DNA of 64,000 nucleotides from a bacterium (GCA_030647355.1 JAUSIS010000013.1:113117-177116), one strand, 5' to 3'. Positions 6,669 to 27,218 are shown, numbered from the stretch's first letter. Made by a program: numbers and translations. Notes: generated from the letters alone by a model not told the origin.

Positions 6669-6720
6669 ACCCATAACAAAACCACCAGCAAAGCTGGTGG
6701 TTTTTGGTTAAACAGCAAAT

Positions 6721-7332: not shown

Positions 7333-7340
7333 CTATTCTC

Positions 7341-8518: not shown

Positions 8519-8623
8519 ATCTTAACATTATTAAAAAGCAATTCCAACAAATTACTCTACACCACAATCTTTCTTGCAGCATAGATTAATATGTCGTACA
8601 ATCTATATATACAAGGAGGATTC

Positions 8624-9577: not shown

Positions 9578-9591
9578 TATTGGAAAATAAT

Positions 9592-9627
9592 TAGCAAAAA
9601 AAGAAGGACCCCGCCGGTCCTTTTCAT
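9592..9627. terminator. Bidirectional intrinsic terminator between xerD-like gene and GC-rich cassette
   Basis: A7 - GGACCCCGCCGGTCC - TTTTCAT. Confidence 0.55.
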
Positions 9628-10127
9628 GTAGTTGTAGCTCGAGGGAGTATCGTGAAAATAGCTTGTGCAAAACCTGGTTGGCCGATAGGCGGTAGATACG
9701 GGTAGAACTTCACCCGATCCTTTACATCCGGGTGGCAAAGCATACCCTTGATGATTATAAATCCACGATGGCCTTCTTCGGATGTTTGCAGTGGCTTGTA
9801 GCGCGGTCTGCAACCAATACAGCAGCTATTTACTATTATCACTACGAAACGTCCATCGGCCACACCATGCGCTACGTACGCAATCCCTCGACTGTCATTG
9901 TGCTTCAGGGTATTGGCCAGAGCGTCCCCAATCGGCTCCCGGATATTCTGCCATACTGGATCGTCGTCGTTGTTACCCAGAAAACTGAAGAGCGCTTCAC
10001 AGACTGACAAACGCGCCCGACTAGCGCTCCTCTGGGTCGTGACATCCATGTCCAGATAATCCAGACCGATAGGCTCCCTGTCCAATACCTTAGCTACGAG
10101 TCTCTCAAGCGCTGCGCTTTTTGCCAT
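9624..10127 (-). CDS. Hypothetical protein (GC-rich cassette)
   Basis: 167-aa ORF with visibly higher GC than the flanks. Flanked by the hairpin terminator at 9606-9627. No recognisable motif. Confidence 0.35.
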   Translation of the reverse strand: MAKSAALERLVAKVLDREPIGLDYLDMDVTTQRSASRARLSVCEALFSFLGNNDDDPVWQNIREPIGDALANTLKHNDSRGIAYVAHGVADGRFVVIIVNSCCIGCRPRYKPLQTSEEGHRGFIIIKGMLCHPDVKDRVKFYPYLPPIGQPGFAQAIFTILPRATTT

Positions 10128-10253
10128 AATACTCCTCCGTGAAGTTCTTCCCGCAGTGCCCCCGCTTGTAATCCAACTAGCAGCCAGTTTAATTCATATA
10201 TAGCACTAGAACGAATCCTCGTCAAATTGTCAATATTCTAGTATAATCATCTC

Positions 10254-10988
10254 ATGCAGAAAGAAAAATTGACCGACTATTTAAATATCGCTATATCAGA
10301 AATAAACGACGGAAACATGTCATACGTCTGGGGCAACCACCAAGAAGTTCTAGAAAACCGTACAAAATTCTTAGAAAAATCTGGCTTCGATACCAACAAT
10401 TGCGCTGTCATGAGCGTAACACATGGCACAGATATATTGATCGCCGACCAATCATATCGAGGCAAAGGAATGTTTGACCATTCAACTGCCCTAAAAGTTG
10501 ACGCTTTAATGACTCAAGATCCTAAAATTGTTCTTTGCCTACTGATCGCTGATTGCCTGCCAATCGTTTTTTATGATCCAAAAAAAAATATCTTAGCCCT
10601 CGCCCACATGGGTTGGAAAAGCACTAATGAAAAACTTGCCATGAAACTGATCACACTAATGAAACAAAAATTCGGCAGTAATCCAAAGGATATTGTTGTA
10701 TCCATCGGTCCTGGAATACACAAAAAATCTTCTATCTTCCCAAGTCCCGTTCTTCAAGAAAAAACGCTCAATTGGCAGCCTTATTTAAAAAATTTACCGA
10801 ACAACCAAACGTCAGTTGACAATCTCGGATATAACTATCAACAGCTTCTTGATTCGGGTATTATTGCAAAAAATATTGAAATTAACCCAATAGACACAGC
10901 CCAATCGCCGGATTACTTTTCTCACTATCGCTCCGTTCGGACCGGCGAGTCTGAAGGTAGATTCATGGTCGCCGTTCGCTTAAAATAA
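10254..10988 (+). CDS. pgeF: PgeF/YfiH family (Cu-oxidase_4/DUF152) purine nucleoside-processing enzyme
   Basis: HGTDIL...IADCLPIVFYD...ALAHMGWKS motifs of the YfiH family. AT-rich native composition. Confidence 0.7.
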   Translation: MQKEKLTDYLNIAISEINDGNMSYVWGNHQEVLENRTKFLEKSGFDTNNCAVMSVTHGTDILIADQSYRGKGMFDHSTALKVDALMTQDPKIVLCLLIADCLPIVFYDPKKNILALAHMGWKSTNEKLAMKLITLMKQKFGSNPKDIVVSIGPGIHKKSSIFPSPVLQEKTLNWQPYLKNLPNNQTSVDNLGYNYQQLLDSGIIAKNIEINPIDTAQSPDYFSHYRSVRTGESEGRFMVAVRLK

Positions 10989-11169
10989 CAAATCAACGAA
11001 ACTCTCTATGGCATAATTTTCATAGGATAAAATGACAAGCCTGTTTTACATCACTGGAAATTTTTGTATAATCCAGATACGATACAAACCAGCGGGAGGA
11101 AAGTCGTTGAGACATGCAGGAAGACAGACAAGACGGTCAACTTTGCCCTTCAAACAACAAGTCGCCGTA

Positions 11170-11571
11170 ATGTTGCGCACAAGATTCTACATTGGCATGC
11201 TTGTCGCCGGAGAAACCACCGGCACATGGGATGATCCGCTTTTTCAAGCGCCAGATCTCATCCCGCCAATCTCACTTGACGACGAAGAAATCAACATGGT
11301 TGCATTGATGCAAACTGATGATTTCTTGCTGGCAGCCATGGACTACTTGCAAAACGGACTACCGGAAGAGCTTATCGAGAATGGCCTGGACGCATTGGAA
11401 GCGTGGCTTGGATTGGGCATTTTGCGTCTGCAAGTCGGCTTAGCCATTACGGCAGAAGAAATCAGCGAAATCCCGGCAAGTATGTGGGAACTCAACAGAG
11501 ATAAGCTCTGGATAAAGTTCAGAGACGACTACTATTTCTGGAGTGAGCTTTATTTCCCCAAAAGCACCTAA
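11170..11571 (+). CDS. Hypothetical acidic protein (GC-rich cassette); start uncertain
   Basis: ORF in a GC-rich segment downstream of a TTTACA-N16-TATAAT promoter (~11055-11083). Followed by hairpin terminator GGGAAGC...GCTTCCC+T-run at ~11583-11610. Confidence 0.35.
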   Translation: MLRTRFYIGMLVAGETTGTWDDPLFQAPDLIPPISLDDEEINMVALMQTDDFLLAAMDYLQNGLPEELIENGLDALEAWLGLGILRLQVGLAITAEEISEIPASMWELNRDKLWIKFRDDYYFWSELYFPKST

Positions 11572-11655
11572 CTGCACAATGGGAAGCGACAAGCTTCCCT
11601 CTTTTTGTAAACAAAAAAACCCGACGCAATCGTCGGGATATAAGATATAAAATGG

Positions 11656-12273
11656 CTAGCCGCCCGCCGCCGCCTCCTCGGGAGTCACCACATGAATACT
11701 GAATTGACAGTCCAGTGCTGTCTCAAGCCCGAGACGTACCTGGCGAACTTGTTCGCCAGACTCCCCGATCAGCTCGCCGCACTTTGAGATGTAGCGAAAT
11801 CGTAGCAGTCTGCCGGCTTGCATCACTCGAATACCATCCAGATCAGCATTCAAATCCAGCTCACCAATGTCATAGTTGGCATATATCTTGAATAGCTTGC
11901 GAGTCAGCTCATGCGCTTCAGCTCCCCGCGCTTCTCCGCGGTGCCGGGTTCCAATACTCCAAAGCAAGATATATTGACAGGGAGTAACATCCCCCATCCG
12001 CGTTATTAGCTCCAACCACTCATGGGTAACTGGTTTCTCACGATCGAGAAAATAATAATGCCTGCCTGGACGGCCGGTAGCATTGCCATTCTCATAACCT
12101 GAACAGGTGTACCAGAGAACAGTAGTCAAAAGACTATTCTGATACTCCCTATGCGACAGAACAAAGTACGACCGATCCGGGACATAAATCAACCTGATCG
12201 CCTCCCCCAATGTTAATATCAACATACTAAGTCCAAAATTAATTTTCGTCAAATCTGCAAAACAACCGACCAC
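11656..12273 (-). CDS. Hypothetical protein (GC-rich cassette); start uncertain
   Basis: 205-aa ORF. Terminator hairpin CCCGACGATTGCGTCGGG+T-run on the minus strand at ~11615-11645. Confidence 0.35.
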   Translation of the reverse strand: MVGCFADLTKINFGLSMLILTLGEAIRLIYVPDRSYFVLSHREYQNSLLTTVLWYTCSGYENGNATGRPGRHYYFLDREKPVTHEWLELITRMGDVTPCQYILLWSIGTRHRGEARGAEAHELTRKLFKIYANYDIGELDLNADLDGIRVMQAGRLLRFRYISKCGELIGESGEQVRQVRLGLETALDCQFSIHVVTPEEAAAGG

Positions 12274-12487
12274 CCAAGGGCTCTCTTTGCCCCCTTTATT
12301 CAGAGATTAAGACCTTGACAATTCTTTTTGGTATCTCTATAATACGGACACAGTCCGCCAATTGGCTAAATTGTACCTGATCTTTATAAAAGATCATGCC
12401 TGCCAAATAGCACTTTGCGCATTTACCAAGTACTCAAAGCGCTGTTTGGCAAACCCAATCAGCTGTTCCCGGAGTTAGAGGAATGAA

Positions 12488-13045
12488 ATGGTACAAACGG
12501 TGGACAATCCTGTTCGAGTCACCAAAGTGGACCCTCTTGTCCACGCCGTCAATGCGCTCGCGAAGTTATTCGGAGCGCCGTCGTTTCCGGAGGAAAACCT
12601 TGCGGGGTTGACCCTGCAAGGACTTTATAGCAAGATGCTAGCCAGTCAGAGACGAACAAGAAGGCATGTCAGTTGGTGCCTTTCTGGCACAAAGGGTTTC
12701 TACTTCATCGTCAAAGGACATGGCGGGGAAACCGTCGTCCGAATTCATCCGGGGATAAAGACTGGTGATGTAGAGCTGAATGCCAGGTTGAAAAACACCA
12801 AACAAACTGGCCTCGCCCTTGAAGCCCGCTGGGCCTTGGACTATGGTTATGTAATCAGTGCCAAGACCCGAGACGAGAACAGCTTTGATGCTGATTCTCT
12901 CGACTACCAAAAGAATGTCCTTTGTGACATCTTAGGGAGAATCAGCATCATGGCACGTGCCTTAGAAACTGATGAGCCGGAAACCCAGGTAATCCGCCGA
13001 TTCATCGGGGCTCCTGCCTATAAGGCACTGCAACTCGCCGCCTAA
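12488..13045 (+). CDS. Hypothetical protein (GC-rich cassette)
   Basis: 185-aa ORF. Upstream TTGACA-N17-TATAAT promoter at ~12318-12346. Leader contains the palindrome GATCTTTATAAAAGATC. Hairpin terminator CCCAGGA...TCCTGGG+T7 at ~13066-13105. Confidence 0.45.
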   Translation: MVQTVDNPVRVTKVDPLVHAVNALAKLFGAPSFPEENLAGLTLQGLYSKMLASQRRTRRHVSWCLSGTKGFYFIVKGHGGETVVRIHPGIKTGDVELNARLKNTKQTGLALEARWALDYGYVISAKTRDENSFDADSLDYQKNVLCDILGRISIMARALETDEPETQVIRRFIGAPAYKALQLAA

Positions 13046-13215
13046 ACCGCCAGTTATCTGGCATCCGAACCTCACCCAGGATGAAATCAAATTCTCCTGG
13101 GTTTTTTTATACCCATAATCTCAAAAGTCAGTCGAATGCTAGGCTCGCTTGTTTGACGTAAAGACAACTTTATGGTTTACTAAAGCCACTGTTGGTTTTT
13201 TAGGGGGACTGATAA

Positions 13216-13680
13216 ATGAGAATGTTCGCATTGTCAGAAGATCTTCGGTTACAGAGCACTAAGCAAGGCGATGACTTCGTGGTTCGCTTCCCGCTAGGAA
13301 GAAATGGCATTCCTGGCGTTGCACTTTACAACGCTGGGAGAAACAACACAGCCGAAGCACCCGTCGTCAATCTTCCAAGCGACCAGGCACTCATTCTGGC
13401 ACACCGGATCACGGCTCGCTGTCGTGATCATGTCTTTTCGAAAGTCACCGAGGTCAAATCTCTCGGAGACGACTGCTATTACCATATCATACTCAAGTGC
13501 GGCTTCACCTACAGGTTCACGAATGACGCCGATTTCCGGCGGAATATCAAACCGGAAGTCGGGGACATGATCCTCATCCACTTCAACGCCCGCAGAGGCA
13601 AACACTTGGTCATAAAGTCCAGCGGGCAAAGATCGTTTCCGGCCTGCGAGATCACCGACGATGACATCATCGCCGAATAG
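13216..13680 (+). CDS. Hypothetical protein (GC-rich cassette)
   Basis: 154-aa ORF with a GGGGGA RBS. Hairpin terminator GGGGAAC...GTTCCCC+T-run at ~13700-13730. Confidence 0.45.
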   Translation: MRMFALSEDLRLQSTKQGDDFVVRFPLGRNGIPGVALYNAGRNNTAEAPVVNLPSDQALILAHRITARCRDHVFSKVTEVKSLGDDCYYHIILKCGFTYRFTNDADFRRNIKPEVGDMILIHFNARRGKHLVIKSSGQRSFPACEITDDDIIAE

Positions 13681-13934
13681 CCAATCCACACTATTCACGG
13701 GGAACACTACACGTTCCCCTATTTTTAATAAAAAAGACGGAATCCGTGTCCTCTTAAGAAACCAAGATCGCTGCCTCGCCACCGTTTGACAAAAACCTAT
13801 TTTTATGCTAATATATAACATCAAGACAAACCTCGTAATATCTTCCTTCAACCTATGGACAGCGCCTTGCGTACAAAAACAGTATTCAGAGCGCTGTTCA
13901 TAGCATCATATCACTTCGAAGGAGGATCCGTTTC

Positions 13935-14471
13935 ATGGAAAAAATCATCGTTATGGCATTAAGCGCGGTGAAAGTGCTGTTTGGCAAGGTGATTCTCTCT
14001 TGCCAAACAGCCGAGACACTTCAGGAGATCCAGGAAGTTATATCACAATGTCCTGACTGGAGAAAGTCCCTCGACAAGGTCAGCTTCTCCGAGAAGACTG
14101 GCTTATCGCTCTGCCGCCTGATCCACGGAGGTGCCTTATACCTCCAGCTGCGAAACCCCGTCGGACTGGTTAACTCGATCAGGATCGGAGTAATCGTAGC
14201 AGGAGACTCCGAATTCCAAACACCAACGACCTTGAACTTGCTCTTCTGTCAGTTGAAGGATCGGAAAGAATGGCGATTGGAAAAAGCAAGATGTGATCTT
14301 GCGGGAGTCATCGAGCCCGAGCCCATTCTGCGGCTTACGGAGCTACTTGGCCCAAATGGGCTTCCCGAACTAGGAGAAACCCTCAACCAGGCACCAATCG
14401 AACAAACCCGGGAAATCAGGGAGTTTCTGGACTCCTGGGTCCAGCAGCAGGTAACGACCGCAACCGCCTAG
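13935..14471 (+). CDS. Hypothetical protein, paralog A of a tandem pair (178 aa)
   Basis: Shares the block TGLSLCRLIHGGALYLQLRN with TLCQAVIGGALCLRFQE of the downstream 178-aa ORF. Upstream motif GCGCTGTTCATAG is shared with the paralog. GAAGGAGGA RBS. Confidence 0.5.
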   Translation: MEKIIVMALSAVKVLFGKVILSCQTAETLQEIQEVISQCPDWRKSLDKVSFSEKTGLSLCRLIHGGALYLQLRNPVGLVNSIRIGVIVAGDSEFQTPTTLNLLFCQLKDRKEWRLEKARCDLAGVIEPEPILRLTELLGPNGLPELGETLNQAPIEQTREIREFLDSWVQQQVTTATA

Positions 14472-14728
14472 CGACACCAACGCACACCAGAAACATCCTC
14501 ACCCTACAAAACCTCATTCCCCCGAGGCAAGACAAAGCACCACGCTTTTCACCTCGGGGCTTTGTTATTTATAGGCATTTTATAATTTTTAATTGACAAA
14601 ACTCAACAAATATGTGATTTTCAGATTAATATATTGTTCCTTTCAACCCCTCCTAGTGCTTATGGGCAGCACTTTGGATACCTAACTCAAGTATAAAAGG
14701 CATCCGAGGCGCTGTTCATAGACTACAT

Positions 14729-15265
14729 ATGGAGGACATAATGAATATTGTGCAAATGGCTCTTGTAGCGCTACGTGAACTGTTCGAAACTACAATGTCG
14801 GAAGAGTTCCCTGACCTGGGAAGCATCGCTTCCGAGCTGGAAAACATACGGCTTGGCAAATTCAAGTATTCCTACGACAACAACGGATTAACGCTCTGTC
14901 AAGCGGTAATCGGTGGCGCACTCTGCCTTCGTTTTCAAGAATCATCTCGGAGTAACACAGGCAAAGATCGGCTCACAGTCTGGCTCATCGGCGTGAGCTC
15001 CCTGAAGTGCAGCCAACTCACTCTTAGCCTCGGGTACAACCTAATAGGAATTGGGGTAGCGGAACTAGGTGCTATCAACTGCTCTTGGAGCACATCAGAT
15101 GTAGTTGCAAGCGGCGAGCCGATCAGTGCTTTCTTAAGACTGCTCCGGTTAGACGACTACAAAATGCTGGAAAGCGCCCTGAAAGCCAAGGAGGGTTTGG
15201 ATGACGTGCGCTACCTGAAGTACCTTCTCGATCTCTGGCGCCAGCGTTACCCAGAAAGCAAGTGA
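14729..15265 (+). CDS. Hypothetical protein, paralog B of a tandem pair (178 aa)
   Basis: Same length and conserved central block as 13935-14471. Upstream GCGCTGTTCATAG motif. Followed 12 nt later by a small Zn-ribbon ORF. Confidence 0.5.
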   Translation: MEDIMNIVQMALVALRELFETTMSEEFPDLGSIASELENIRLGKFKYSYDNNGLTLCQAVIGGALCLRFQESSRSNTGKDRLTVWLIGVSSLKCSQLTLSLGYNLIGIGVAELGAINCSWSTSDVVASGEPISAFLRLLRLDDYKMLESALKAKEGLDDVRYLKYLLDLWRQRYPESK

Positions 15266-15277
15266 AAGGAGCCCTGT

Positions 15278-15502
15278 ATGTTTCTTGCCCAATGTATCTT
15301 TGGTTTGTTCGTAGGCAGTATGATGTGCTATGTGTTGTGGTTCGTTTTCTTCGATCGCGAATGTCCCAAGTGCCATTCGCACTACATCAAGCACAACGAT
15401 GAATGCATTGCCGGAGGCGCCTACTTTCGAACCGTATTCTGCCGGAACTGCAGATACGTTCTCGAAACCAAGACTATCTGCGCCCCTATCTGCCATATAT
15501 GA
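15278..15502 (+). CDS. Small membrane-anchored zinc-ribbon protein (74 aa)
   Basis: N-terminal TM helix followed by CPKC...CRNC (two CxxC pairs). Tightly linked downstream of paralog B. Confidence 0.45.
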   Translation: MFLAQCIFGLFVGSMMCYVLWFVFFDRECPKCHSHYIKHNDECIAGGAYFRTVFCRNCRYVLETKTICAPICHI

Positions 15503-15594
15503 CCCCTGACGACATGTCTCGGGTCTCTTTTTATCTTTACAGAGTGAACCTTCGGTGTATAATACTAATAACGCTGCACCTTAAGGAGTAGAAG

Positions 15595-16506
15595 ATGGGA
15601 AAGATTCTCGCCCTTATGTGTCCCGGACAAGGATCGGCACACATTGGCATGGGTGAGGATCTTTATCAAACCTCGTCCTATGCCCGAACCGTTTACCATT
15701 TCGCCGACGACTATCTAAGGGGTTATCTCCGACAAATCCTGCCTTTTGAGCATTCCGACCTGACCTTGAGTAGTATCTGCTTCGAGGGGCCCCGGGAACT
15801 TCTGGAGCTACCCTCGATTGCGCCGCTGGCTGTTTTTGTCACCAGTATCGCTAACCTCCGTCTTCTTGAGGAGATAGCCGAAGAGGTAGAATGGATAGTC
15901 GCCGGACACAGCCTCGGTGAATATACTGCCTTGGTTGCCTCTAGAGTTCTGACTTACCAACAAGCCCTCTCACTAGTTCTTATCCGAACCAGATTGATGG
16001 TTCATCACGCGAGTCGAATAAACGGCGCAATGGTAGCTACTCTGGGGTTAACTGAAGCACAGGTTGCCGAAATCTGCCAGAAACACCAGCCCACAGGTGT
16101 GATCGTCATGGCAAATTACAACTGTCCGGGACAAATCGTGCTCTCGGGAGATAAGCTTGTACTTGAGAATGCCTGTCAAGACATTCTCCGCCTTGGAGGA
16201 AAGACGCGCGAACTCAATGTCGGCGGTCCCTGGCATTCCCCCCTGATGCAGCCTGCCGCTGATAAGTTCAAACCGCATCTTCGTAGAGCCAAGATCGCCT
16301 CACCCACAGGAACGCTCTACCTAAGCGGTACCGGACGGAAGGTTTCCGCACCTGCAACCATCCGCCATCACCTGCGTATTCAAATGGTATCTCCCGTACT
16401 CTGGGAGAAAACCATTCGCAACATGCTAAGAGATGGAGTAACCGACTTTATCGAGCTCGAACCGAGCAGGATACTAAGGGGATTTCTCAAGCGCATCAAG
16501 TCCTAG
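15595..16506 (+). CDS. fabD: Malonyl-CoA:ACP transacylase family acyltransferase (FabD-like)
   Basis: CPGQGS N-terminal motif, GHSLGEY active-site nucleophile elbow, ANYNCPGQIVLSG, and PWHSPLMQPAADKF as in FabD. GC-rich. Confidence 0.8.
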   Translation: MGKILALMCPGQGSAHIGMGEDLYQTSSYARTVYHFADDYLRGYLRQILPFEHSDLTLSSICFEGPRELLELPSIAPLAVFVTSIANLRLLEEIAEEVEWIVAGHSLGEYTALVASRVLTYQQALSLVLIRTRLMVHHASRINGAMVATLGLTEAQVAEICQKHQPTGVIVMANYNCPGQIVLSGDKLVLENACQDILRLGGKTRELNVGGPWHSPLMQPAADKFKPHLRRAKIASPTGTLYLSGTGRKVSAPATIRHHLRIQMVSPVLWEKTIRNMLRDGVTDFIELEPSRILRGFLKRIKS

Positions 16507-16583
16507 CCATCTAGGACTTTTTTTATGCTCAATAGACACTACACTAATACAACAACATACCAGTTTTTCACAAGCAAAGCTCG

Positions 16584-16796
16584 GTGTATAATATAGCTAT
16601 GCTAAAAAAATATCTACTCTATCTGCTAATGGGGCTGGTTGCTGAAGGCATCATCCGAGGGTTTTTCTATTTTGAAGATCGCTACCAAGCCACTCATCCT
16701 GTAAAGCAAAAAATCAATATTGAGAAAGTTGACCCAAAATATCGTCAGGACCTGCAAGACCTGAAAGATCTCAAAGATACCATTAACGGACAATAA
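16584..16796 (+). CDS. Small membrane protein with C-terminal DLKDLKD motif
   Basis: One TM helix. C-terminus ...DLQDLKDLKD matches the ...DLKDLKDLY C-terminus of the 47351-47653 small membrane ORF. Confidence 0.35.
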   Translation: MYNIAMLKKYLLYLLMGLVAEGIIRGFFYFEDRYQATHPVKQKINIEKVDPKYRQDLQDLKDLKDTINGQ

Positions 16797-16916
16797 TCTC
16801 CGGCCACAACCTCAAAAGCGCCTGTTGTAATATTAGCTAACCGGTTGACTTTGGCTGACAATTATAGTATACTTTTCGCATACTGAACGACCGAACGACT
16901 ATTTTGGAGGTAACCA

Positions 16917-17192
16917 ATGTCTGCTGCACAGATACCCGCCTCTCCCCCAAGTCTTGAGATTCCGACGCCCCCCACCGCCACCACCTACCGAGATGAAGGC
17001 CACGATGGCTCTCCTCCGGTTCAGGTCGGATGTACTCAATTCAACTCACATACTTGCCCTCTTCGCTTCCGGGGCCGCAACGAACCCTCGGAATGGTCAG
17101 GGGCCAAGTATGAGTACGATCCTCTACCGCCCCTGGACCACGACCCTGTGTGGTGCGCTACCTGCCCCGACAGGAGGCAGAAGATCAAATGA
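16917..17192 (+). CDS. Small Pro-rich Cys-containing protein (possible Zn ribbon)
   Basis: Strong GGAGGT RBS. CTQFNSHTC...CATC cysteine pairs. TTGACT-N17-TATACT promoter at ~16845-16873. Terminator at 17459-17492. Confidence 0.4.
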   Translation: MSAAQIPASPPSLEIPTPPTATTYRDEGHDGSPPVQVGCTQFNSHTCPLRFRGRNEPSEWSGAKYEYDPLPPLDHDPVWCATCPDRRQKIK

Positions 17193-17458
17193 ACTATTCG
17201 GGCTTTGCTGGATTGCGCGAATTCGTCAAGGCAATGACCACCTGTGGCAAGAGCATACGCTTGGATTAAGTCCTACTGATCCAAGCAGCAGCCGAAAAGG
17301 CCAAGCTCAGCTAGGAGCAGCGCATTGAGATCTATGAGATACTCGCTGCATCAGGATCTGATAGCATAGCGCAGAGTCGGCTGGAGAAACTCATGACTGG
17401 CACGGAAAGCCAAGTCACATCCGGCGCCGCCTAGGCGCCCGAACTTCATCCCACCCCA

Positions 17459-17492
17459 CCCCCGCCCTTTCCCAGAAAGAGCGGGGTTTTTT
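17459..17492 (+). terminator. Intrinsic terminator, family CCCACCCC...stem...TTTTTTCATACC
   Basis: Hairpin CCCCGCCCTTTC-CCAGA-GAAAGAGCGGGG followed by T6 and CATACC. Confidence 0.6.
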
Positions 17493-17506
17493 CATACCTC
17501 CACCGC

Positions 17507-17535
17507 TTGACCAGTTGTTTATGTAATGCAATAAT
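17507..17535 (+). promoter_or_regulatory. sigma70-type promoter TTGACC-N17-AATAAT upstream of purD
   Basis: Starts 14 nt after the TTTTTTCATACC terminator tail. Confidence 0.45.
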
Positions 17536-17600
17536 CCAGGCAACGCATTGTAGTAAATTCTGCATAACAACAAACCATAGAAACGGAGGAAAACACAGTA

Positions 17601-18878
17601 ATGCGTGTACTTATCGTCGGAAAGGGCGGACGTGAGCATGCTCTAACATGGATGATCACCCAAAGCCCAAGAAAGCCGGAAATTCTGGCAGCACCGGGCA
17701 ATCCCGGCATCGCCAAGTTCGGCACGTGCTATCCAATTTCGGACACAAACCTGGACGGCATCGTCAACCTGGCAGTTGAGAAAAAGGTCGACATCGTTGT
17801 AGTCGGCCCTGAAAACCCTCTGGACGCTGGCTTAGTTGACCGCTTGGCAGACGCCAATATTCTGGCATTCGGCCCCACAGCCGCCGCCGCGCGACTCGAG
17901 TCATCCAAGCTTTTTGGCAAAGGGATCATGGAAGCCGCCGGTGTCACCACTCCTGACTATCGGGCGTTCAACAATCCCGGGAAGGCGCTCAAGTACCTGC
18001 GAGAGCTGCATCTCAGCGACTTCCCGATTGTCATCAAAGCCGACGGTCTCGCTTTTGGCAAAGGCGTCTATATCTGCCTGACTCTGGAAGCCGCCGAGCG
18101 AGCAGTCCAAAACCTCATGGTCGCACGGCTTCTCGGAGAAGCCGGTGACGCCATCCTGGTCGAGGACTTCGTGAGCGGATTGGAATGCTCGGTACTCGCC
18201 GTCTGCGACGGCGAACGCTTCGTCTATTTCCGCGCCATTCGCGACTACAAGCGAATCGGCGTTGGAGACACAGGCGAGAACACTGGCGGAATGGGAGCTG
18301 TTACACCGGTTCCTGGATGCGACATCGCCTTCCACGAATGGGTAGCAGATCACATCATCGCACCCATACTCGCAGAGATGAGACGGCGCGGCATCCCCTA
18401 CAAGGGCTGCCTCTACCTCGGCTTGCTGATCAAGGACGGCGTGATCTATGTGTTGGAATTCAATGTTCGCTTCGGCGACCCTGAAACCCAACCGGCCATG
18501 CTGATGCTTGACGAGGATCTCCTGAAACTGATGCTGGATGCGAGCCACGGCAATCTTGCCATCTCCCGTCCTGCTAGGTGGCTCAATGGAGCAGCCGCCT
18601 GCATCGTCGGCGCCGCCAATGGCTATCCTGGCAATTACGCTAAGGGCAAAGCCATCTACGGCATCAACGAGGTCGAAACTGACGACACAATCGCCTTCCA
18701 AGCCGGTACTGCGCGTCACGGAAACATACTCGTCACCGACGGCGGCAGAGTAGTCGGCGTAACGTCTTACGACGCCAATAGTCTGCCGGCAGCGCTTGAC
18801 AAGTCCCTGGCAGGAATCAGTAAAATCCGCTGCTCGGACATGATCTGGCGCCCCGACATCGGCCACAACGCCGTCTGA
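17601..18878 (+). CDS. purD: Phosphoribosylamine--glycine ligase (GAR synthetase)
   Basis: MRVLIVGKGGREHALTW N-terminus, PGNPGIA, an ATP-grasp core and PurD C-domain all colinear with PurD. Very GC-rich relative to the backbone. Confidence 0.85.
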   Translation: MRVLIVGKGGREHALTWMITQSPRKPEILAAPGNPGIAKFGTCYPISDTNLDGIVNLAVEKKVDIVVVGPENPLDAGLVDRLADANILAFGPTAAAARLESSKLFGKGIMEAAGVTTPDYRAFNNPGKALKYLRELHLSDFPIVIKADGLAFGKGVYICLTLEAAERAVQNLMVARLLGEAGDAILVEDFVSGLECSVLAVCDGERFVYFRAIRDYKRIGVGDTGENTGGMGAVTPVPGCDIAFHEWVADHIIAPILAEMRRRGIPYKGCLYLGLLIKDGVIYVLEFNVRFGDPETQPAMLMLDEDLLKLMLDASHGNLAISRPARWLNGAAACIVGAANGYPGNYAKGKAIYGINEVETDDTIAFQAGTARHGNILVTDGGRVVGVTSYDANSLPAALDKSLAGISKIRCSDMIWRPDIGHNAV

Positions 18879-18912
18879 CCAAATCATCCGGAACTAAACA
18901 CCGGCAACCAAC

Positions 18913-18932
18913 GCCCCTTCGGGGGCTTTTTT
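18913..18932 (+). terminator. Intrinsic terminator after purD (GCCCCTTCGGGGGC+T6+CATACC)
   Basis: Perfect tetraloop hairpin followed by a T-run. The same hairpin type recurs at ~19674-19700. Confidence 0.65.
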
Positions 18933-18946
18933 CATACCAGTTAATC

Positions 18947-18975
18947 TTGACAAAAAAGCGTTTATACCGTACAAT
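18947..18975 (+). promoter_or_regulatory. Consensus sigma70-type promoter TTGACA-N17-TACAAT
   Basis: Located right after the TTTTTTCATACC terminator of purD. Drives the 19089 cassette. Confidence 0.55.
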
Positions 18976-19088
18976 CACATGTTGGTTGCACCTCTGGAAT
19001 CTTCCTTGATTGGCTGCGCTTTGGATATTGTTCAAATCAGTATTCAAACCGTTGCCAACCACCAACGAAAAAATAGGAGGATTACCGT

Positions 19089-19661
19089 TTGAATGCACGC
19101 CAACGAATGATCTGTTTTGTCCAAGGGATAGTTGCCGGACTCTGGAACAACCCGAAGTTCGAAACCGCTATCCTACCTGAGGCAACCGGGCTGAAACGGC
19201 TCGAGAATAGTTTCAGCCAGTACCCGGCACCCGCGGAACCGAACCGTATCATAACGGAGTACGGGCATGATGTCTTGAGTATTGGCTACATGACACTCGG
19301 CGGGCTGTTGACTTTCAACTGCTACCCCTACTCTTACATCATGTGTTGCATCAGGACTACCGTCGGACCTGACAGCCTGGAACAACTCTTCTCTCTCGGT
19401 TGGAACCTCAAAACCGACCAGATGGATAGGGTTGGAACGCCTAACTCAAATATCCTGTATCAAGGACTAAACGGCGCTTTCCTGGATCGGCTCAACGAAC
19501 AACTCGATGTTCTTGGACGGATACTGGCCGGCAGGTATCCCGGTGCTGACATCTATGGCTATTACACCGACCAGCTCAAGCAAATGCTGATGGCGGACGA
19601 GAGTCCTAGTGCGGTATTGTTCCGCGATCTACTCCTTGAATGCGGCTCGATCAGAGCCTAA
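19089..19661 (+). CDS. Hypothetical protein (GC-rich cassette)
   Basis: 190-aa ORF with a GGAGGA RBS. Own promoter at 18947-18975 and terminator at ~19674-19700. Confidence 0.45.
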   Translation: MNARQRMICFVQGIVAGLWNNPKFETAILPEATGLKRLENSFSQYPAPAEPNRIITEYGHDVLSIGYMTLGGLLTFNCYPYSYIMCCIRTTVGPDSLEQLFSLGWNLKTDQMDRVGTPNSNILYQGLNGAFLDRLNEQLDVLGRILAGRYPGADIYGYYTDQLKQMLMADESPSAVLFRDLLLECGSIRA

Positions 19662-19761
19662 CGATCCCCTACCAACGCCCCTTCGGGGGTTCTTTTTTTA
19701 TTTCCATGCGTTTGGGTTGACCTTGATAATCGCTCAGCTTATACTCAAGCAAAGGAGCATT

Positions 19762-20370
19762 ATGCAAAAAAGTCCAGAGACATTTACGGAATTAGACCAC
19801 GACGAAGTGCAACGAAAAAGAGATATTGCCGAAATCGAACATTTTAAATTTAAGGGTGCCTGGAAAAGAATAGGCGCCGATTGCTCTGGAGATTCCAGAG
19901 GAGCATGCGCACGAAGCAATAGTGGCAAATGTGGTGTCTACCATAACTGTGAAGCTGCCTCGGCAGCAATGGGGCCCGAGGAAATATGCCCAGCTCACAC
20001 ATCCGAAGAAGATGCTCATAAAGAAGCGGAAGCTATTTACGAAAAAGTTAGTCAACTGGCAAAATTCCATGATATTAGCGATAAGTCCTTTGAATTAAAA
20101 CATGAAATTATCGCTACTAACGGTGATAAAGTTCAACCGAAATATATACTTGATAAAACAGACGAAAGATCAACTGAAGATTTAGCTTGGTATGATCCTG
20201 AGGACATTAAAACTAGTCTAATACTCAAAACAAACTTCCAAAAAGATAGTGATCGGGAAGGGAATGATAATTCTTCTTTCGAGCTTCCTCCGTCTCCTAC
20301 CCCGGAACAGCTAGGAATACTAAAAGAATTCTGCGAAATTCATGGATTATTTAGATCCGAACAACAATAG
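19762..20370 (+). CDS. Hypothetical acidic protein with Cys-rich segment
   Basis: Start at MQKSPETF after an AAAGGAG RBS. Promoter TTGACC-N17-TATACT at 19716-19745. Confidence 0.4.
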   Translation: MQKSPETFTELDHDEVQRKRDIAEIEHFKFKGAWKRIGADCSGDSRGACARSNSGKCGVYHNCEAASAAMGPEEICPAHTSEEDAHKEAEAIYEKVSQLAKFHDISDKSFELKHEIIATNGDKVQPKYILDKTDERSTEDLAWYDPEDIKTSLILKTNFQKDSDREGNDNSSFELPPSPTPEQLGILKEFCEIHGLFRSEQQ

Positions 20371-20450
20371 AGAAACTATATTACTCGAAAAAGCCCGCTT
20401 GACCAGTTACCGACGGGGTGTATAATCCAGACAAAGAAAAGAAAGCTTGA

Positions 20451-21335
20451 ATGAATAACCTTAGAGATAAACCACTTTTTATAGTCACCCTTTTAGCAGC
20501 ACTACTAGCTTTTTGTATATTCAAGAATGAGCTAAGTCAAAAAACAATTTTCTTGGGAATTGCACATACGAACTTATTACAGTTGATTCTCATATTTGCC
20601 ATTCTCCTTTCGCTATCAGCATATTTATACGCATTAGATTTCGTTAGATATGGCACCAGTTTCGAGAATAACATCATCTTGAGACGTTTTATCCTCGTCG
20701 GACACTTTTTTTATATCTTAGCAGTTTTCTTTCCTATAATTATTGGGTTAGTTTGGCTCATAGTCTGGTTATTAAATATTATCTTAGCAAACGTAATTGT
20801 TAATCAGATAGTTACAGTAGTAGTTCTTAGTCTGTCATTTTTCATAAGTAGTTACTTTGCAGACAAAATGAAAAGAAGCCAGAGGAATCAGTTGGCAGAA
20901 AAAATACAAGAGAAAACCGAAGAAAATATGGAAAGAGCATTTGAGCTATATACACAAAAATTTTACCCATCTTTCATTTTAGAAAGCTATAACACCGCTC
21001 TTTCCTTGATTCGAACTACGCTTGAATCAAAAGGCTATAGCACTATTAATCTGCCTGCTACAACGCTCCTGCTGCTCGCCAAGAAAGAAAAGGTTATTTC
21101 ACCATCAGCGCAGGAAAAATTAAATAAACTAAAGATTCTTAGAAATAAAGCAGCCCACATGAATATTACTTTGAGTAAAGCAGATGCTGATTTTGCTAAG
21201 GAAATAGTCAAAAGCATATCAAAACAATTAGATTTCCATCAGTTACTCGAGAAGGAAACGGAAGAAGACCAGCAGAAGTTTAACAAACAAATTAAAACAA
21301 TACAAAATTATATAAAAAAAATTAGAAATAAATAA
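20451..21335 (+). CDS. Membrane-anchored protein with C-terminal HEPN-like (Rx4H, DUF4145-like) domain
   Basis: About four N-terminal TM helices. C-terminal LNKLKILRNKAAHMN carries an Rx4H HEPN motif in a helical context. Very AT-rich. Confidence 0.45.
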   Translation: MNNLRDKPLFIVTLLAALLAFCIFKNELSQKTIFLGIAHTNLLQLILIFAILLSLSAYLYALDFVRYGTSFENNIILRRFILVGHFFYILAVFFPIIIGLVWLIVWLLNIILANVIVNQIVTVVVLSLSFFISSYFADKMKRSQRNQLAEKIQEKTEENMERAFELYTQKFYPSFILESYNTALSLIRTTLESKGYSTINLPATTLLLLAKKEKVISPSAQEKLNKLKILRNKAAHMNITLSKADADFAKEIVKSISKQLDFHQLLEKETEEDQQKFNKQIKTIQNYIKKIRNK

Positions 21336-21399
21336 ATGATTCTCTTTTGCAGGAAGACGAAATAAGCTAACGCTTCTAAACTCTAATTAAAAAGAATAG

Positions 21400-21665
21400 C
21401 TCCCGCTTCATCGCTCCTTTGTTTCTTTGAAAAGGAGAAGTCAATTACGCTCCCAAAGAAGCCTCGGCCACAGGATGGAATCCTAGTGGAACGCTGGGAG
21501 TGTCTTTGAGGAAGTAATTTATTTTCGACGCTTCCCAAGAAGTCGTGCAGGGGTATGGGATTGTAAGGGACATAGGGGGCGGCATCGAAACGAGCCCCCT
21601 TACCCCTTACATACCCTGGCGCTGTCAGCGCCAAAAACCCAGGCATGTCCCATGCCCTCAAACAA
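21400..21665. ncRNA. GC-rich structured intergenic element (candidate small RNA; strand and class unknown)
   Basis: GC-rich island between two AT-rich genes. Nested hairpins CCTGGCGCTGTCAGCGCCAAAAACCCAGG and GGGGGCGGCATCGAAACGAGCCCCC. The 99-aa minus-strand ORF across it looks spurious. Confidence 0.3.
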
Positions 21666-21719
21666 TCTATGCTATAATACAAATAGTAAACTCACTCAAA
21701 AAATAAAAAAGGAGAGGAA

Positions 21720-22439
21720 ATGTTGGAGCTCAAAGATGTAACTAAAAAATTCGGCCCCATAACCGCCGTAGATAATTTATCTTTTGAAATAAACGAAGGC
21801 GAAATAGTCGGCCTCATCGGCCCAAACGGCTCCGGCAAAACCACCGCCCTCAAAATGATTGCCGGCCTCTACCGCCCAACTTCCGGCAAAATAACCATCA
21901 AAAACCACGATGTCGCCAAAGACGCCGAAGAAACTCGCGCTCTTCTCGGCTACATTCCGGATGAACCGGCTGTCTACAGCAAACTGACCGGCGACGAATT
22001 CCTCAATTTTGTCGGAGAAACATTTGGCATCCCCGCCGACAAACGCCAAAGCGCCATTGCCGAACTCCACAAACAATTCCCAATGGAAGAACAAACCGGC
22101 GGCTATTTTGAAGATTATTCCCGCGGCACCCGCCAAAAATTTATGATCATGGCCGCCTTACTTCACAAATCGCCTTTGCTTTTGATTGACGAGCCGATAG
22201 TCGGCCTCGACCCCTCGAGCGCCCACACCGCCACTCGCCTCTTCTCCGAATATGCCAAAGAAGACAAAAGAGCCATTCTCGTCTCCACCCATTCTCTGGC
22301 AGTCGCCCAAGAACTCTGCGACCGCTTCATCGTCTTATCAAAAGGCAAAATGGTTGCCCAAGGGTCGCTGAGCGAACTGCGCAAAGACGCCCAAACCGAC
22401 GGCTCTTTAGAGCAAATCTATCTCAAACTGGCAGAATAA
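21720..22439 (+). CDS. ABC transporter ATP-binding protein
   Basis: Walker A GPNGSGKTT, signature region, Walker B LLLIDEP, and an H-loop. Confidence 0.85.
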   Translation: MLELKDVTKKFGPITAVDNLSFEINEGEIVGLIGPNGSGKTTALKMIAGLYRPTSGKITIKNHDVAKDAEETRALLGYIPDEPAVYSKLTGDEFLNFVGETFGIPADKRQSAIAELHKQFPMEEQTGGYFEDYSRGTRQKFMIMAALLHKSPLLLIDEPIVGLDPSSAHTATRLFSEYAKEDKRAILVSTHSLAVAQELCDRFIVLSKGKMVAQGSLSELRKDAQTDGSLEQIYLKLAE

Positions 22440-22441
22440 TC

Positions 22442-24082
22442 ATGAACACATTATCACTTTTCAACATAATCAACCGCGGCAATTCCTATTGGCGAGGCAA
22501 AAACAAGGCCTTTCCCGTTATTGTCTCCGCTTTTATCGTCCTTATCTTAGGGATTGCCTTCGGCGAATATTACGGCTTCCGATATATCCTGCATACTCTC
22601 GAAGAAGATCCTTTCTTCAAAAACATCATCATTTCCTTTAGCTTCCACGCTATCTTCGCCATTCTCTTTTCCTTGATTGTCGCCAGCGCCCTTATCATAA
22701 GCCCGATATTATTTTTGAAAAACCGCTATGATAATTTTCTATTATCCTTGCCAATTAAAACCCATACCATTTTCTCCGCCCGTTTCATTACCCAGCTAAT
22801 TCTTCTCGGCTGGACAGCCATTATCTTCGGCATGCCGATAATTCTCGCCATCGGCATCAACACCCACGCTTCATTTTCGTTTTACCTGATCGCTGTCATT
22901 TATTTAGCCCTGCTTATCGTCTTAGCCGGAGCTATCAGCAATGCCCTATTGCTTTTGATAATCGCCGTCACCAAAAACAAAATCCCCCGCCTTACCACCC
23001 TGATTAGCTTGGCGGGCGCCGCCCTTTTCTTCTATGCCTTAGTGCGCACTGTCACCCCCCACAACCTCGTGCCATTGCTCCTGCCCGACAACCAAAGCCA
23101 CGTCACTGCCCTTGTAAACATCACCACACAATTTCGCTATTGGCCTTCCACTTGGTATGCCGATTCTGTCTTGCCGCTCGTCAACGGCACTGCGCTTTCG
23201 ACAATTAACTTTCTAATTCTGCCCCTGGTAACCATTGCCGTTTTTCTAATTCAATATCTTCTGGCAGTCAAATTCTACCGCTCGGCACTCCAAGAAACCC
23301 AAGAAAGCCGCGAGAAAAAACCCAAAAAGAACAGTTTTCTAATCAAACTATCCGGCGCCCCAATGCTTTTAGTACGCCAATGGGCGCAAGTCGCCCGCAC
23401 CCGAAACGACATTAACCAACTTTTCCTGTTTATCCTACTCTTTCTTATGTATCTCGGCTTTATCGCCAATTCTCCCAATCTCGGCAGCACACCGGATCCG
23501 GTTTGGACGCCACGCATAATATTTTTCCTCCTGCTTGTGGTCGTCTATTTCATTATCTTAATGGCACTGCGCTTTGCTTTTCCCTTTGCCAGCTTGTCAG
23601 CCAATCTCTCGTGGTTCAATCTATCTCTGCCCCGCTTTCGCGCCCGCTCCTATTCCAGCCATATCATGGCCACATTCCTGCCCATCGCCATAATCCTCGA
23701 GGTAATTATTTTCTTTACCTCCCGCATCATGCAATTCTCCGCGTCTTTTACCACTCCCATGCTGATTATTACTCCTATTTTATGTTTAACCATTATTACC
23801 CTCATCACTGCCGTCGGTTCGGTCTTCCCCGCCTCCCACAACATCAATCCGGAAACTATGAGCACCACTCCCTCCGGTTTACTGGCTCTGGTCGTCGCCA
23901 ACATTTACGCCCTGCTTGCCATCGCCGCTCTCTGGAAAGAAGCATCCAATGCTATAACCGGCGGTCACATTGGTATAAATATCGGCTCTCTTTATTTAAT
24001 CGCTTTATTGAGTTCACTTCTTCTCACTATAATCTTTTGGCGCATCGGCCAGTCGGCCTTCCGCCACCTTCGCCTGGCATAG
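22442..24082 (+). CDS. ABC-2 type transporter permease (multi-TM)
   Basis: 546-aa highly hydrophobic protein immediately downstream of the ATPase, with start overlapping the ATPase stop. Confidence 0.6.
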   Translation: MNTLSLFNIINRGNSYWRGKNKAFPVIVSAFIVLILGIAFGEYYGFRYILHTLEEDPFFKNIIISFSFHAIFAILFSLIVASALIISPILFLKNRYDNFLLSLPIKTHTIFSARFITQLILLGWTAIIFGMPIILAIGINTHASFSFYLIAVIYLALLIVLAGAISNALLLLIIAVTKNKIPRLTTLISLAGAALFFYALVRTVTPHNLVPLLLPDNQSHVTALVNITTQFRYWPSTWYADSVLPLVNGTALSTINFLILPLVTIAVFLIQYLLAVKFYRSALQETQESREKKPKKNSFLIKLSGAPMLLVRQWAQVARTRNDINQLFLFILLFLMYLGFIANSPNLGSTPDPVWTPRIIFFLLLVVVYFIILMALRFAFPFASLSANLSWFNLSLPRFRARSYSSHIMATFLPIAIILEVIIFFTSRIMQFSASFTTPMLIITPILCLTIITLITAVGSVFPASHNINPETMSTTPSGLLALVVANIYALLAIAALWKEASNAITGGHIGINIGSLYLIALLSSLLLTIIFWRIGQSAFRHLRLA

Positions 24083-24084
24083 AA

Positions 24085-24843
24085 TTATTGCACTTGCGAT
24101 ACTTTCCAAAGCTGCTGGAACCAGTTGCGCATGGCAGTCGCGTTTTCCCTGGAAGTAATCACCACACCAAAATTTTCTTTTATTGAGGTCAAAATTGCTA
24201 CATTATCGCCATAAATATAATAATGCGCCGGACACTCAAAACCAACTGGCCCTATTCGCCTCTTTCTCAAGCCTTCCTTCGGATCAAAAAATGAATCAAT
24301 CTTGCCTCTAACCCATACCGAGCGCGTCCAAATCCCCTTCTTTACCTTTCGAGCCACCCAATCAATAAAAAAATTCTTATCCAAAATATCAGTCAATTTG
24401 TTAGTTTCTCCGACATAATAAATCTCATCAACTGGCGTCTCAAGAATCTCCTCGTAAATCGCCTTAATCTCCTCACCTCGGAAAAACCGGACCCTTGGCT
24501 GAAACGGCGAAAACTCGTATAACCGGTTGAATTCCGGCAGAAATTTCTCCAAATTCTCCGCCTGTTCCTGCAATTTCTCCTGCTTGCCTCGAATCAGCGT
24601 CATAATCTTACGAGGCGGATAAGGTATATAAATCCGACGTGTTGCCGTCTGCGTAATCTCAATTAATCCCCTATCTCTTAAGTTTTCTAATTCATGAAAA
24701 ACCGTCGTCCTCGGCAAACCAGTCTTTTCTTTAATTGACACTATACTCGATTCACCAAGTTCAAGACAAGCCAAATAAACTTCAATCTCTTTTTCACTTA
24801 AATCCAATTGTTTTAAAAAATCATCGAATTGCATACTGTCCAC
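24085..24843 (-). CDS. TrmB family transcriptional regulator
   Basis: N-terminal HTH LSEKEIEVYLACLELGESSIVSIKEKTGLPRTTVFHELENLRDRGLI typical of TrmB. C-terminal sensor domain. Confidence 0.7.
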   Translation of the reverse strand: MDSMQFDDFLKQLDLSEKEIEVYLACLELGESSIVSIKEKTGLPRTTVFHELENLRDRGLIEITQTATRRIYIPYPPRKIMTLIRGKQEKLQEQAENLEKFLPEFNRLYEFSPFQPRVRFFRGEEIKAIYEEILETPVDEIYYVGETNKLTDILDKNFFIDWVARKVKKGIWTRSVWVRGKIDSFFDPKEGLRKRRIGPVGFECPAHYYIYGDNVAILTSIKENFGVVITSRENATAMRNWFQQLWKVSQVQ

Positions 24844-24974
24844 CTATTTGGATGATATTAGGAATTGATTTAATCTTACAATAAGCCAAATAACCTGTCA
24901 ATATGGCAATTGGTATCCAATGGTATTGACATTTTTTTGCTCTTAGCGGATAATTTCACGTCAAGCTTAAAGCT

Positions 24975-25165
24975 GACAAAGAACCCATTGCACAAGTCTC
25001 TTAGGTACGAAACAGGAAAGATTATCGACGAAAGACTAGAACTTATGAGGAAACGTAGCCAAAGCTACGTTGACAAATAATTCTTGGCTTGCAGTCATAA
25101 GATTCCCTGCTGCAGTAACCAATAGATCCTGTGAAATGGGTTCGTTACCTTAACAAGAAAGGAAC
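24975..25165 (+). promoter_or_regulatory. Long structured leader upstream of the secreted-protein/radical-SAM operon (riboswitch-like architecture, class unknown)
   Basis: Promoter TTGACA-N17-GATAAT at ~24927-24955. Long-range pairing GAACCCATT (~25003) with AATGGGTTC (~25133) encloses about 120 nt containing the hairpin CGTAGCCAAAGCTACG. Confidence 0.3.
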
Positions 25166-25741: not shown

Positions 25742-25752
25742 GAGGAAGCAAG

Positions 25753-27168: not shown

Positions 27169-27186
27169 ACCCCCACAAACCCCCAC

Positions 27187-27217
27187 CCAGCTCTTTTCAA
27201 AAAAGAGCTGGTTTTTT
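27187..27217 (+). terminator. Intrinsic terminator after radical SAM gene (CCAGCTCTTTT-CAAA-AAAAGAGCTGG+T6)
   Basis: Perfect 11-bp stem preceded by CCCCCACAAACCCCCACC. Confidence 0.65.
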
Positions 27218-27218
27218 A

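Follow-up and report, generated by a model that had tools for sequence, protein, structure and literature searches.

A stretch of 64,000 nucleotides from a bacterial contig (GCA_030647355.1 JAUSIS010000013.1:113117-177116; hereafter the window, with positions counted from its first letter) carries, 1.1 kb apart and both on the plus strand, a gene for a divergent FabD-family acyltransferase (the FabD-like protein, 303 aa, 15595-16506) and purD, encoding phosphoribosylamine--glycine ligase or glycinamide ribonucleotide (GAR) synthetase (425 aa, 17601-18878). Our results point to two unrelated accessory genes, transcribed independently of each other, in a segment of foreign composition within the genome of a Berkelbacteria-related bacterium of the Candidate Phyla Radiation (CPR). 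Together with the steps proposed below, this reading has in our view an even chance of being correct. All sequence tests identify PurD as a canonical GAR synthetase. The evidence on the FabD-like protein speaks more for an acyltransferase that still works, with a changed entrance and hence a changed substrate or partner, than for a dead gene. Overall, the case most likely represents ordinary patchy lateral acquisition in a CPR genome, as already described (PMC7304191).

An earlier note on this DNA, made from the sequence alone, had placed both open reading frames (ORFs) exactly at these coordinates and had taken them for orphans of their pathways. All statements below on genes for fatty acid synthesis (fab), purine synthesis (pur) and acyl carrier protein (ACP) cover the 64-kb window, which is part of a contig of 241,868 bp (about 178 kb more).

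The FabD-like protein

The protein encoded at 15595-16506 (MDO8513777.1) matches Pfam Acyl_transf_1 (PF00698, E 1.7e-26), and its best family model is fabD, ahead of mdcH and the acyltransferases (ATs) of polyketide synthases (PKSs). Its AlphaFold2 (AF2) model (predicted local distance difference test, pLDDT, 96.4; predicted template modelling score, pTM, 0.93) has the two-subdomain fold, alpha/beta-hydrolase plus ferredoxin-like, and the top 20 Foldseek matches of this model are all malonyl-CoA:ACP transacylases (MCAT/FabD; template modelling scores, TM, of 0.88-0.91). To map residues, the protein was aligned with E. coli FabD (its sequence, which sets the numbering, was entered by hand) and 120 homologs; the roles of catalytic and docking residues were taken from an AcpP-FabD structure paper (bioRxiv 10.1101/2020.05.15.098798), those of the catalytic residues also from a review. 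The catalytic set is kept (S106, H214, Q12, R131 and Q263, equivalent to S92, H201, Q11, R117 and Q250 of E. coli), and so is the phosphopantetheine (PPant) groove (N174, N176 and Q180 for N160, N162 and Q166). The basic residues that dock ACP or coenzyme A (CoA), for which the earlier note had proposed a check, are likewise retained: K203/R205 stand for K189/R190 (ambiguous by one gap), R292 for K279 (a change from Lys to Arg), K299 for K286 and R300 for R287. In common with FabD as represented by TIGR00128 and the E. coli structures 1MLA, 2G2Z and 6U0J, the protein has the fold, the GHSLG nucleophile with the catalytic His, the Arg for the malonyl carboxylate, the oxyanion Gln, the Asn/Asn/Gln of the PPant groove and the docking basics.

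The earlier note had credited this protein with all hallmarks of a malonyl-CoA:ACP transacylase. The three motifs it named (GQGS, GHSLGEY and PGQIVLSG) are indeed present, but the statement was too generous: nine of 55 near-invariant positions (at least 95% conserved in the 120 best homologs) are changed, where other homologs show a median of 1 and a maximum of 5. Compared with FabD the changes are F8C, Q14A, T59P, Q63P, P64L, F200W, N231S, G276E and G278S (C9, A15, P73, P77, L78, W213, S244, E289 and S291 in the numbering of the window protein). Five of the replaced residues show no or almost no variation elsewhere: Q14, T59 and N231 are the same in all 120 homologs, Q63 and G276 in 119 of them. 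Q14 lies in the beta1/alpha1 loop and T59-P64 in the alpha3/alpha4 loop; in a study of PksD these two loops form a hydrogen-bonded network that shapes the pocket entrance (PMC11775670). The residue before the catalytic His is Trp, normally Phe, the G276 and G278 sites precede the docking residue K279, and a 13-residue insertion follows residue 40. On TIGR00128 the protein scores 203.1 bits, below the equivalog cut-off of 260.9, and among 5.8 billion clusters no relative is more than 41% identical. Its closest homolog is part of a canonical plsX-fabH-fabD-fabG-acpP-fabF operon, a context from which the window gene has been removed.

Conserved positions are changed at 16% in the FabD-like protein and at 7% in PurD, against an overall divergence of about 55-60%. 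The 16% set against about 59% for the FabD-like protein itself argues for evolution mainly under purifying selection, with the constraint shifted at defined sites. Because the Ser-His dyad, the oxyanion Gln, the carboxylate Arg, the PPant groove and the docking residues are kept, we propose that the protein would most likely still move a carboxy-acyl (malonyl-type) group between CoA and the thiol of a carrier protein. Loss of the invariant residues of the entrance loops may have changed its specificity for substrate or partner, or may reflect a partly relaxed constraint.

The Acyl_transf_1 fold and a stand-alone nature are also common to PksD, PksC, DisD and MdcH. In the acyl hydrolases of trans-AT PKSs, Arg117 is replaced by Gln or His and GHSL by G(A/S/V)SL (PMC11775670); the FabD-like protein keeps Arg131 and GHSLG, which argues for an acyltransferase and against an acyl hydrolase of the PksD/PedC type. 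MdcH was rejected as well, given a score of 143.1 bits on TIGR03131 (cut-off 297.9) and no mdc genes in the window. A Pfam scan of 56 ORFs across the window, in agreement with the earlier note, revealed no other fab gene, nor did the Pfam ORF scan reveal any PKS gene; a six-frame phmmer search combined with a motif scan (ACP queries entered by hand) found no ACP. An antisense ORF at 15149-15496 containing GADSLG was considered as a candidate ACP and dismissed (phmmer E 0.26, motif N-terminal, no ACP-like helices).

PurD and the purine genes of relatives

PurD (MDO8513779.1, entered at NCBI as 'phosphoribosylamine--glycine ligase') is complete, as the earlier note had described it. The Pfam domains GARS_N, GARS_A (ATP-grasp) and GARS_C are all full length, the score on TIGR00877 is 430.1 bits against a cut-off of 288 (residues 1-424 of 425), and starting with the canonical N-terminus MRVLIVGKGGREHAL residues 1-425 align with E. 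coli PurD (1GSO). The three-domain ATP-grasp architecture and the length are those of bacterial PurD, with end-to-end alignments of 308-311 bits to 1GSO (308) and Yersinia 3MJF. The window protein contains all of the motifs GGREHAL, ADGLAxGKGV, DTGxNTGGMGA and EFNxRFGDPETQ, and its conserved ligand-binding motifs align with both structures; the note had suggested a check of the phosphoribosylamine-binding residues. Under the same definition as above, 97 of 104 near-invariant positions are kept. The differences from bacterial PurD concern its surroundings and descent: it belongs to a deep-branching clade of four, it is a solitary gene instead of part of a pur cluster, and its GC content at third codon positions (GC3) is 0.67 against about 0.42 in the backbone.

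The nearest relatives, labelled here P0122, P0123 and P0124, are 56%, 52% and 51% identical to the window PurD. Together the four form a clade that is recovered in 200 of 200 bootstraps of a neighbour-joining (NJ) tree (numpy implementation), with pairwise identities of 50-56% among its members. When 1.84 billion representatives were searched exhaustively with HMMER, no further clade member above about 51% identity emerged, and a metagenome scan with the four-member alignment was dominated by canonical PurDs of at most 47% identity and gave no new member. P0124 is solitary between dciA and recF-dnaN-dnaA on a CPR-like contig of 204 kb, where its GC3 of 0.55 compares with about 0.40 in its neighbours. 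P0123 is solitary too, as is a Parcubacteria PurD (39% identity) found by a search of genome contigs.

Three candidate features were discarded. An H-to-Y change in the DHKR motif does not mark the clade, since DYKR recurs in at least 13 other PurD representatives. A 328-aa ORF on the minus strand (17901-18887) is a shadow ORF antisense to the GC-rich purD, and its apparent conservation in three relatives (L002, L006 and L007; L numbers are our labels for related loci) mirrors that of purD. Finally, a 191-aa GC-rich ORF adjoining TrmB in L002 had looked syntenic; it shows no homology, and the position is a coincidence.

In the Pfam scan of 56 ORFs across the window purD was the only pur gene, in line with the earlier note. 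Relatives whose GroEL is 78-84% identical share with the window a syntenic GroEL-ParA-TrmB-PRC-T2SSF-pilin backbone, and among them the slot between trpS and groES (53149-60385 in the window) is hypervariable. In L089 this slot holds a lone purC among GC-rich ORFans (genes without recognizable relatives), with a GC3 of 0.68 and scores of 360.6 bits on NF010568 (cut-off 251) and 214 bits on TIGR00081 (cut-off 189.9). In L093 it holds a lone guaB (539.8 bits on TIGR01302, cut-off 481.5) and in L091 metK, and in L094 it is almost empty. The slot of the window contains two GC-rich ORFans, a low-GC trio of HIT-like, NUDIX and AAA genes, and ndk. The GroEL proteins of the relatives that bear purC and guaB are 83-84% identical to that of the window.

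With lone purC or guaB genes in relatives, scattered single purine genes are the rule in this lineage, one of them (purC) having the foreign composition of the window's purD, and 64 kb are too few to tell whether a gene is an orphan. That PurD looks like one is probably an effect of the window size on a purine gene set that is scattered, and on this comparison we lean towards a purD that works with partners encoded elsewhere in the genome. The earlier note had also held that organisms with this gene content usually lack both pathways. Most CPR bacteria have been described as being without lipid and nucleotide synthesis (PMC7304191; PMC4736985), but for purines the generalization is too strong, as de novo purine synthesis has been called complete in 32% of CPR metagenome-assembled genomes (MAGs) (PMC11608272).

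Transcription units and composition of the GC-rich stretch

Each of the two genes has its own expression signals on the plus strand, which bears out the earlier description of both as single-gene cassettes. The fabD-like gene is preceded by a sigma-70-like promoter (15536-15563, TTTACA-16-TATAAT) and a ribosome-binding site (RBS; AAGGAG at about 15582), and an intrinsic-terminator-like hairpin with a T-run (16498-16519) overlaps its stop codon. For purD the sigma-70-like promoter lies at 17507-17535 (TTGACC-17-AATAAT with TG) and the RBS (GGAGG) at about 17585, and the terminator follows at 18913-18926 (GCCCCTTCGGGGGC plus a T-run). Two small ORFs lie in between, also on the plus strand: one of 65 aa with a hydrophobic N-terminus (16599-16796) and its own promoter-like site (16565-16592), and a Pro/Cys-containing one of 91 aa (16917-17192, also called in Logan) with a promoter-like site at 16845-16873, a GGAGG RBS and a terminator hairpin at 17460-17486.

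Promoter-like sites are in excess in this part of the window: between 11000 and 21500 we counted 31, where 12.3 +/- 3.1 would be expected, and ten of these match at 10 or more of the 12 positions. As a control, the pilus operon at 36000-46500 gave 27 sites against 24.2 expected, none of them that strong, and the region 21500-32000 is intermediate. The excess over the controls indicates that single-gene units with their own promoter and terminator are real and specific to this part of the window. For a riboswitch or leader 5' of purD there was no Rfam match at gathering score, only chance-level matches at E < 1.

Some of the terminators resemble each other. A 39-nt copy (79% identity) of the purD terminator region (18894-18932) is found after the next gene (19658-19696), and the hairpins that follow different GC-rich units at 17457-17495, 27183-27221, 28590-28628 and 29371-29409 are related in sequence, with 87% identity over 39 nt between those at 17457 and 29371. 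These related 3' hairpins suggest a shared or copied 3' module.

The two genes are part of a GC-rich stretch rich in ORFans (11032-19661) that comprises about ten hypothetical genes besides the fabD-like gene and purD, nearly all on the plus strand and arranged in short units with their own promoter. GC3 of the genes in this stretch is 0.51-0.67 (0.536 for the fabD-like gene, 0.667 for purD) against 0.36-0.45 for the backbone genes that are common to relatives, so that the GC-rich character reported earlier is borne out. The hypothetical proteins have no match in Pfam, NCBIfam, PHROGs or PADLOC, and the genes around fabD-like and purD are strain-specific ORFans that are not common to relatives. 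Further genes of the GC-rich class are located at 21720-24082 (ABC transporter), 25166-27168 (a hypothetical gene and a B12-radical SAM gene), 28722-29363, 32937-33776 (dcd) and 53615-56248. The radical SAM enzyme, which the earlier note had recognized, is encoded at 25753-27168 on the plus strand (Pfam Radical_SAM and B12-binding; GC3 0.576; terminator at 27187-27211).

Taken gene by gene, GC3 is bimodal across 9624-33776 and 53615-56248, with backbone genes at about 0.36-0.45 and interleaved single-gene units at 0.51-0.68. The GC-rich class consists mostly of strain-specific ORFans, together with the ABC pair, the B12-radical SAM gene, dcd, purD and the fabD-like gene. Relatives from other samples show this mosaic as well (652-8665 of L089; 9357-11272 and 15615-16190 of L002). 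Within the GC-rich stretch, two adjacent ORFans of 178 aa (13935-14471 and 14729-15265) are weakly paralogous, with 30% identity across 71 aa (E 5e-4), and look like a tandem duplication.

The stretch is probably a compositionally foreign, ORFan-rich and strain-variable segment; its acquisition is something we infer from composition only. The earlier note had spoken of an acquired island. The atypical composition stands, but the hallmarks of an integrative island or prophage were not found: the stretch has no dedicated integrase and is not marked by a tRNA, by convincing flanking repeats or by phage genes. The only recombinase, a tyrosine recombinase of Xer type and not of phage or integron type (8591-9577, plus strand; Pfam Phage_integrase and SAM-like domain), lies outside the stretch, 1.5 kb to its left; it scores 266 bits on NCBIfam XerD (cut-off 329.6) and 132 bits on the integron integrase model (cut-off 265). 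A search of viral contigs gave no relatives. A prophage or defence island was rejected, as the ORFans are without PHROGs or PADLOC matches and the only signal is sub-threshold JetB noise on the FabD-like protein. Nor does an integron cassette array fit, given an integrase score below the cut-off, units with their own promoters and terminators, and no attC-like repeat family. An identical 13-mer, TGTATAATCCAGA, occurs at 11065-11077 and 20419-20431, in the -10 regions of promoters at the edges of the stretch; it was discarded as an att site, the likeness being confined to two similar promoters without extending beyond the promoter elements. No tandem repeats were found in 5000-21500.

Competing explanations and other features of the window

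In the reading we prefer, PurD would act as GAR synthetase (phosphoribosylamine (PRA) + glycine + ATP -> GAR), likely with other pur genes that are scattered singly in the genome. Both genes were probably gained laterally and singly from higher-GC bacteria and would then have obtained their own promoter, RBS and terminator. As canonical fabD sits mid-operon, the expression signals of the fabD-like gene would be secondary. The two proteins would not form a functional pair: the four PurD relatives with readable context (L002, L005, L006 and L007) have no acyltransferase neighbours, and joint chemistry of the two is without support. This resembles the patchy lateral accessory metabolism described for CPR bacteria (Jaffe et al. 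2020, PMC7304191), with isolated genes in a reduced genome, distributed unevenly among close relatives and of unclear donor. What differs from that pattern is that the acquired genes are here GC-richer than the backbone and that each stands as a unit of one gene between a strong promoter and a terminator of its own.

Several points weigh against this reading. The donor, which the earlier note had hoped to identify by phylogeny, was not found; the best matches (41% identity for the FabD-like protein, 46-49% for PurD outside its clade) come from mixed phyla. The lateral origin draws on composition, and no hallmark of mobility was found. Partners of the two genes (other pur genes, an ACP, a phosphopantetheinyl transferase and a source of malonyl-CoA) would have to be encoded outside the 64-kb window, and the evidence on purC and guaB comes from relatives and not from the genome of the window. 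That different relatives have different single genes would be expected as well if the gene sets were patchy and incomplete. The clade of the window PurD is very small and does not represent a trait widespread among CPR bacteria. A gene on its way to being lost is likewise compatible with what is seen in the FabD-like protein: replaced invariant residues, a score short of the cut-off, and a host group in which malonyl-CoA is not expected.

A second view is that both genes are true orphans: an episymbiont that scavenges DNA would have taken up single housekeeping genes from a neighbour or host of higher GC content, and these would persist without their pathways and without a contribution to metabolism, PurD lacking both substrate supply and downstream enzymes and the FabD-like gene slowly decaying. 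We regard this as possible, though doubtful. It would explain why no pathway partner is present in 64 kb of a genome from a group described as mostly without lipid and nucleotide synthesis, why the FabD-like protein lacks 9 of 55 near-invariant residues and does not reach its equivalog cut-off, why the same slot holds purC, guaB or neither among relatives, and why the surrounding ORFans are strain-specific. Yet both ORFs are intact and come with a near-consensus promoter, a strong RBS and a terminator, which for the fabD-like gene must postdate its exit from an operon. Purifying selection dominates (change at 16% and 7% of conserved sites against about 55-60% divergence), every catalytic and docking residue is kept, and with 41% identity to its nearest homolog the FabD-like protein is not merely a brief neutral passenger. 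A more specific proposal, unlikely in our estimate, is that it has become a neofunctionalised carrier-protein/CoA acyltransferase for a host-derived or non-malonyl carboxy-acyl thioester in a lipid-auxotrophic episymbiont, in a lineage that would reshuffle its nucleotide and acyl metabolism through strain-variable, GC-rich units of one gene each, such as purD in the window and purC in a relative, equipped with a promoter and terminator of their own. Quite unlikely is a further proposal, that of an ordinary malonyl-CoA:ACP transacylase that serves a complete type II fatty acid synthesis (FASII) or PKS system elsewhere in the genome. The best family match, the intact fold, the catalytic and ACP-docking residues and the NCBI name (ACP S-malonyltransferase) would agree with it, whereas the score below the TIGR00128 cut-off, the replacement of Q14, T59, N231, Q63 and G276, the location outside a fab operon (unlike the closest homolog) and the lack of an ACP in the window do not. 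Moreover, FASII is usually lacking in CPR bacteria; in Peribacteria only fabG was found (PMC4736985).

The earlier note had suggested, besides salvaged fragments of host pathways, recruitment for other chemistry. On this view PurD (as ATP-grasp amide ligase) and the FabD-like protein would act jointly on an unknown substrate in a small novel pathway, perhaps with the B12-radical SAM enzyme. The 1.1-kb distance within one GC-rich stretch, the remodelled entrance loops of the FabD-like protein and the radical SAM gene 7 kb away in a similar unit could be taken in its favour. However, the genes are separate transcription units with terminators and two small ORFs (65 and 91 aa) between them, PurD is canonical at 97 of 104 positions and passes its equivalog cut-off, neither the members of its clade nor the Parcubacteria PurD have an acyltransferase or radical SAM neighbour, and with no relative above 41% identity the FabD-like protein offers no conserved gene pair. 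This lack of conserved linkage effectively refutes a joint pathway, which we consider highly improbable. The least probable explanation of all is an artefact of assembly or binning, by which GC-rich foreign DNA would have been joined wrongly to a CPR contig. The sharp difference in composition between stretch and backbone is what such an error would produce, but a second, independent assembly (Logan, run SRR13727527) matches the window at 100% identity over 5595-21566 (16 kb read of a 33-kb contig), across both edges of the stretch, so that the gene arrangement is not the product of a single assembly. In addition, the GC-rich units alternate with backbone genes along 9.6-56 kb instead of forming one block, and relatives from other samples show the same mosaic.

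If PurD does work with scattered partners, as the preferred reading has it, this Berkelbacteria-like lineage would be more autonomous in its nucleotide supply than textbook accounts of CPR bacteria suggest, and nucleotide capacity could ride on laterally gained single genes. Neither this nor the FabD-like variant overturns current views, the patchy lateral gain of metabolic genes in CPR bacteria being documented already. The most noteworthy parts are the FabD-like variant and the GC-rich packaging of single genes, the latter seen in relatives too. The FabD-like protein is a rare natural variant in which the whole catalytic and docking apparatus is kept while invariant entrance loops are rewritten, in a host where fatty acid synthesis is not expected. 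As such it may be informative on the role of the invariant residues and on the use of an acyltransferase in a lipid scavenger.

The host assignment is based on GroEL, whose best named matches (about 70% identity) are Candidatus Berkelbacteria, at about 71%, and the 'Patescibacteria group'; unnamed relatives reach 78-92%, the closest (90-92%) being P0245 and P0246 on Logan contigs. The backbone of the window includes type IV pilus and T2SS-F genes, pilins, TrmB regulators, a Kelch-repeat protein of 1796 aa and a peptidoglycan-binding protein. Nucleoside diphosphate kinase (NDK), dCTP deaminase, YchF, GroEL, TrpRS, S6/SSB/EF-P and the Xer recombinase are encoded as well.

A third, very AT-rich gene class (GC 0.28-0.33) is found at 56393-58224 and 20451-21335. 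The former region, on the minus strand, encodes three consecutive proteins (DcpS/HIT-like, NUDIX hydrolase and AAA_18 kinase-like); the latter, at the right edge of the GC-rich stretch, encodes a membrane protein with weak similarity to DUF4145 and HEPN-AbiU2. GC skew is negative in nearly all 1-kb bins of the window, the plus strand being C-rich throughout, and the cumulative skew falls almost monotonically, which places the whole window inside one replichore. The first principal component (PC1) of codon usage separates the genes of the window by strand as well as by GC3. Finally, the gene at 5211-6668 encodes a protein of 485 aa in which a PhdYeFM antitoxin-like N-terminal domain is fused to about 400 residues of low-complexity sequence rich in Pro, Thr and Ala; its GC content at second codon positions (GC2) is 0.63, and the local GC skew in this region is -0.5.

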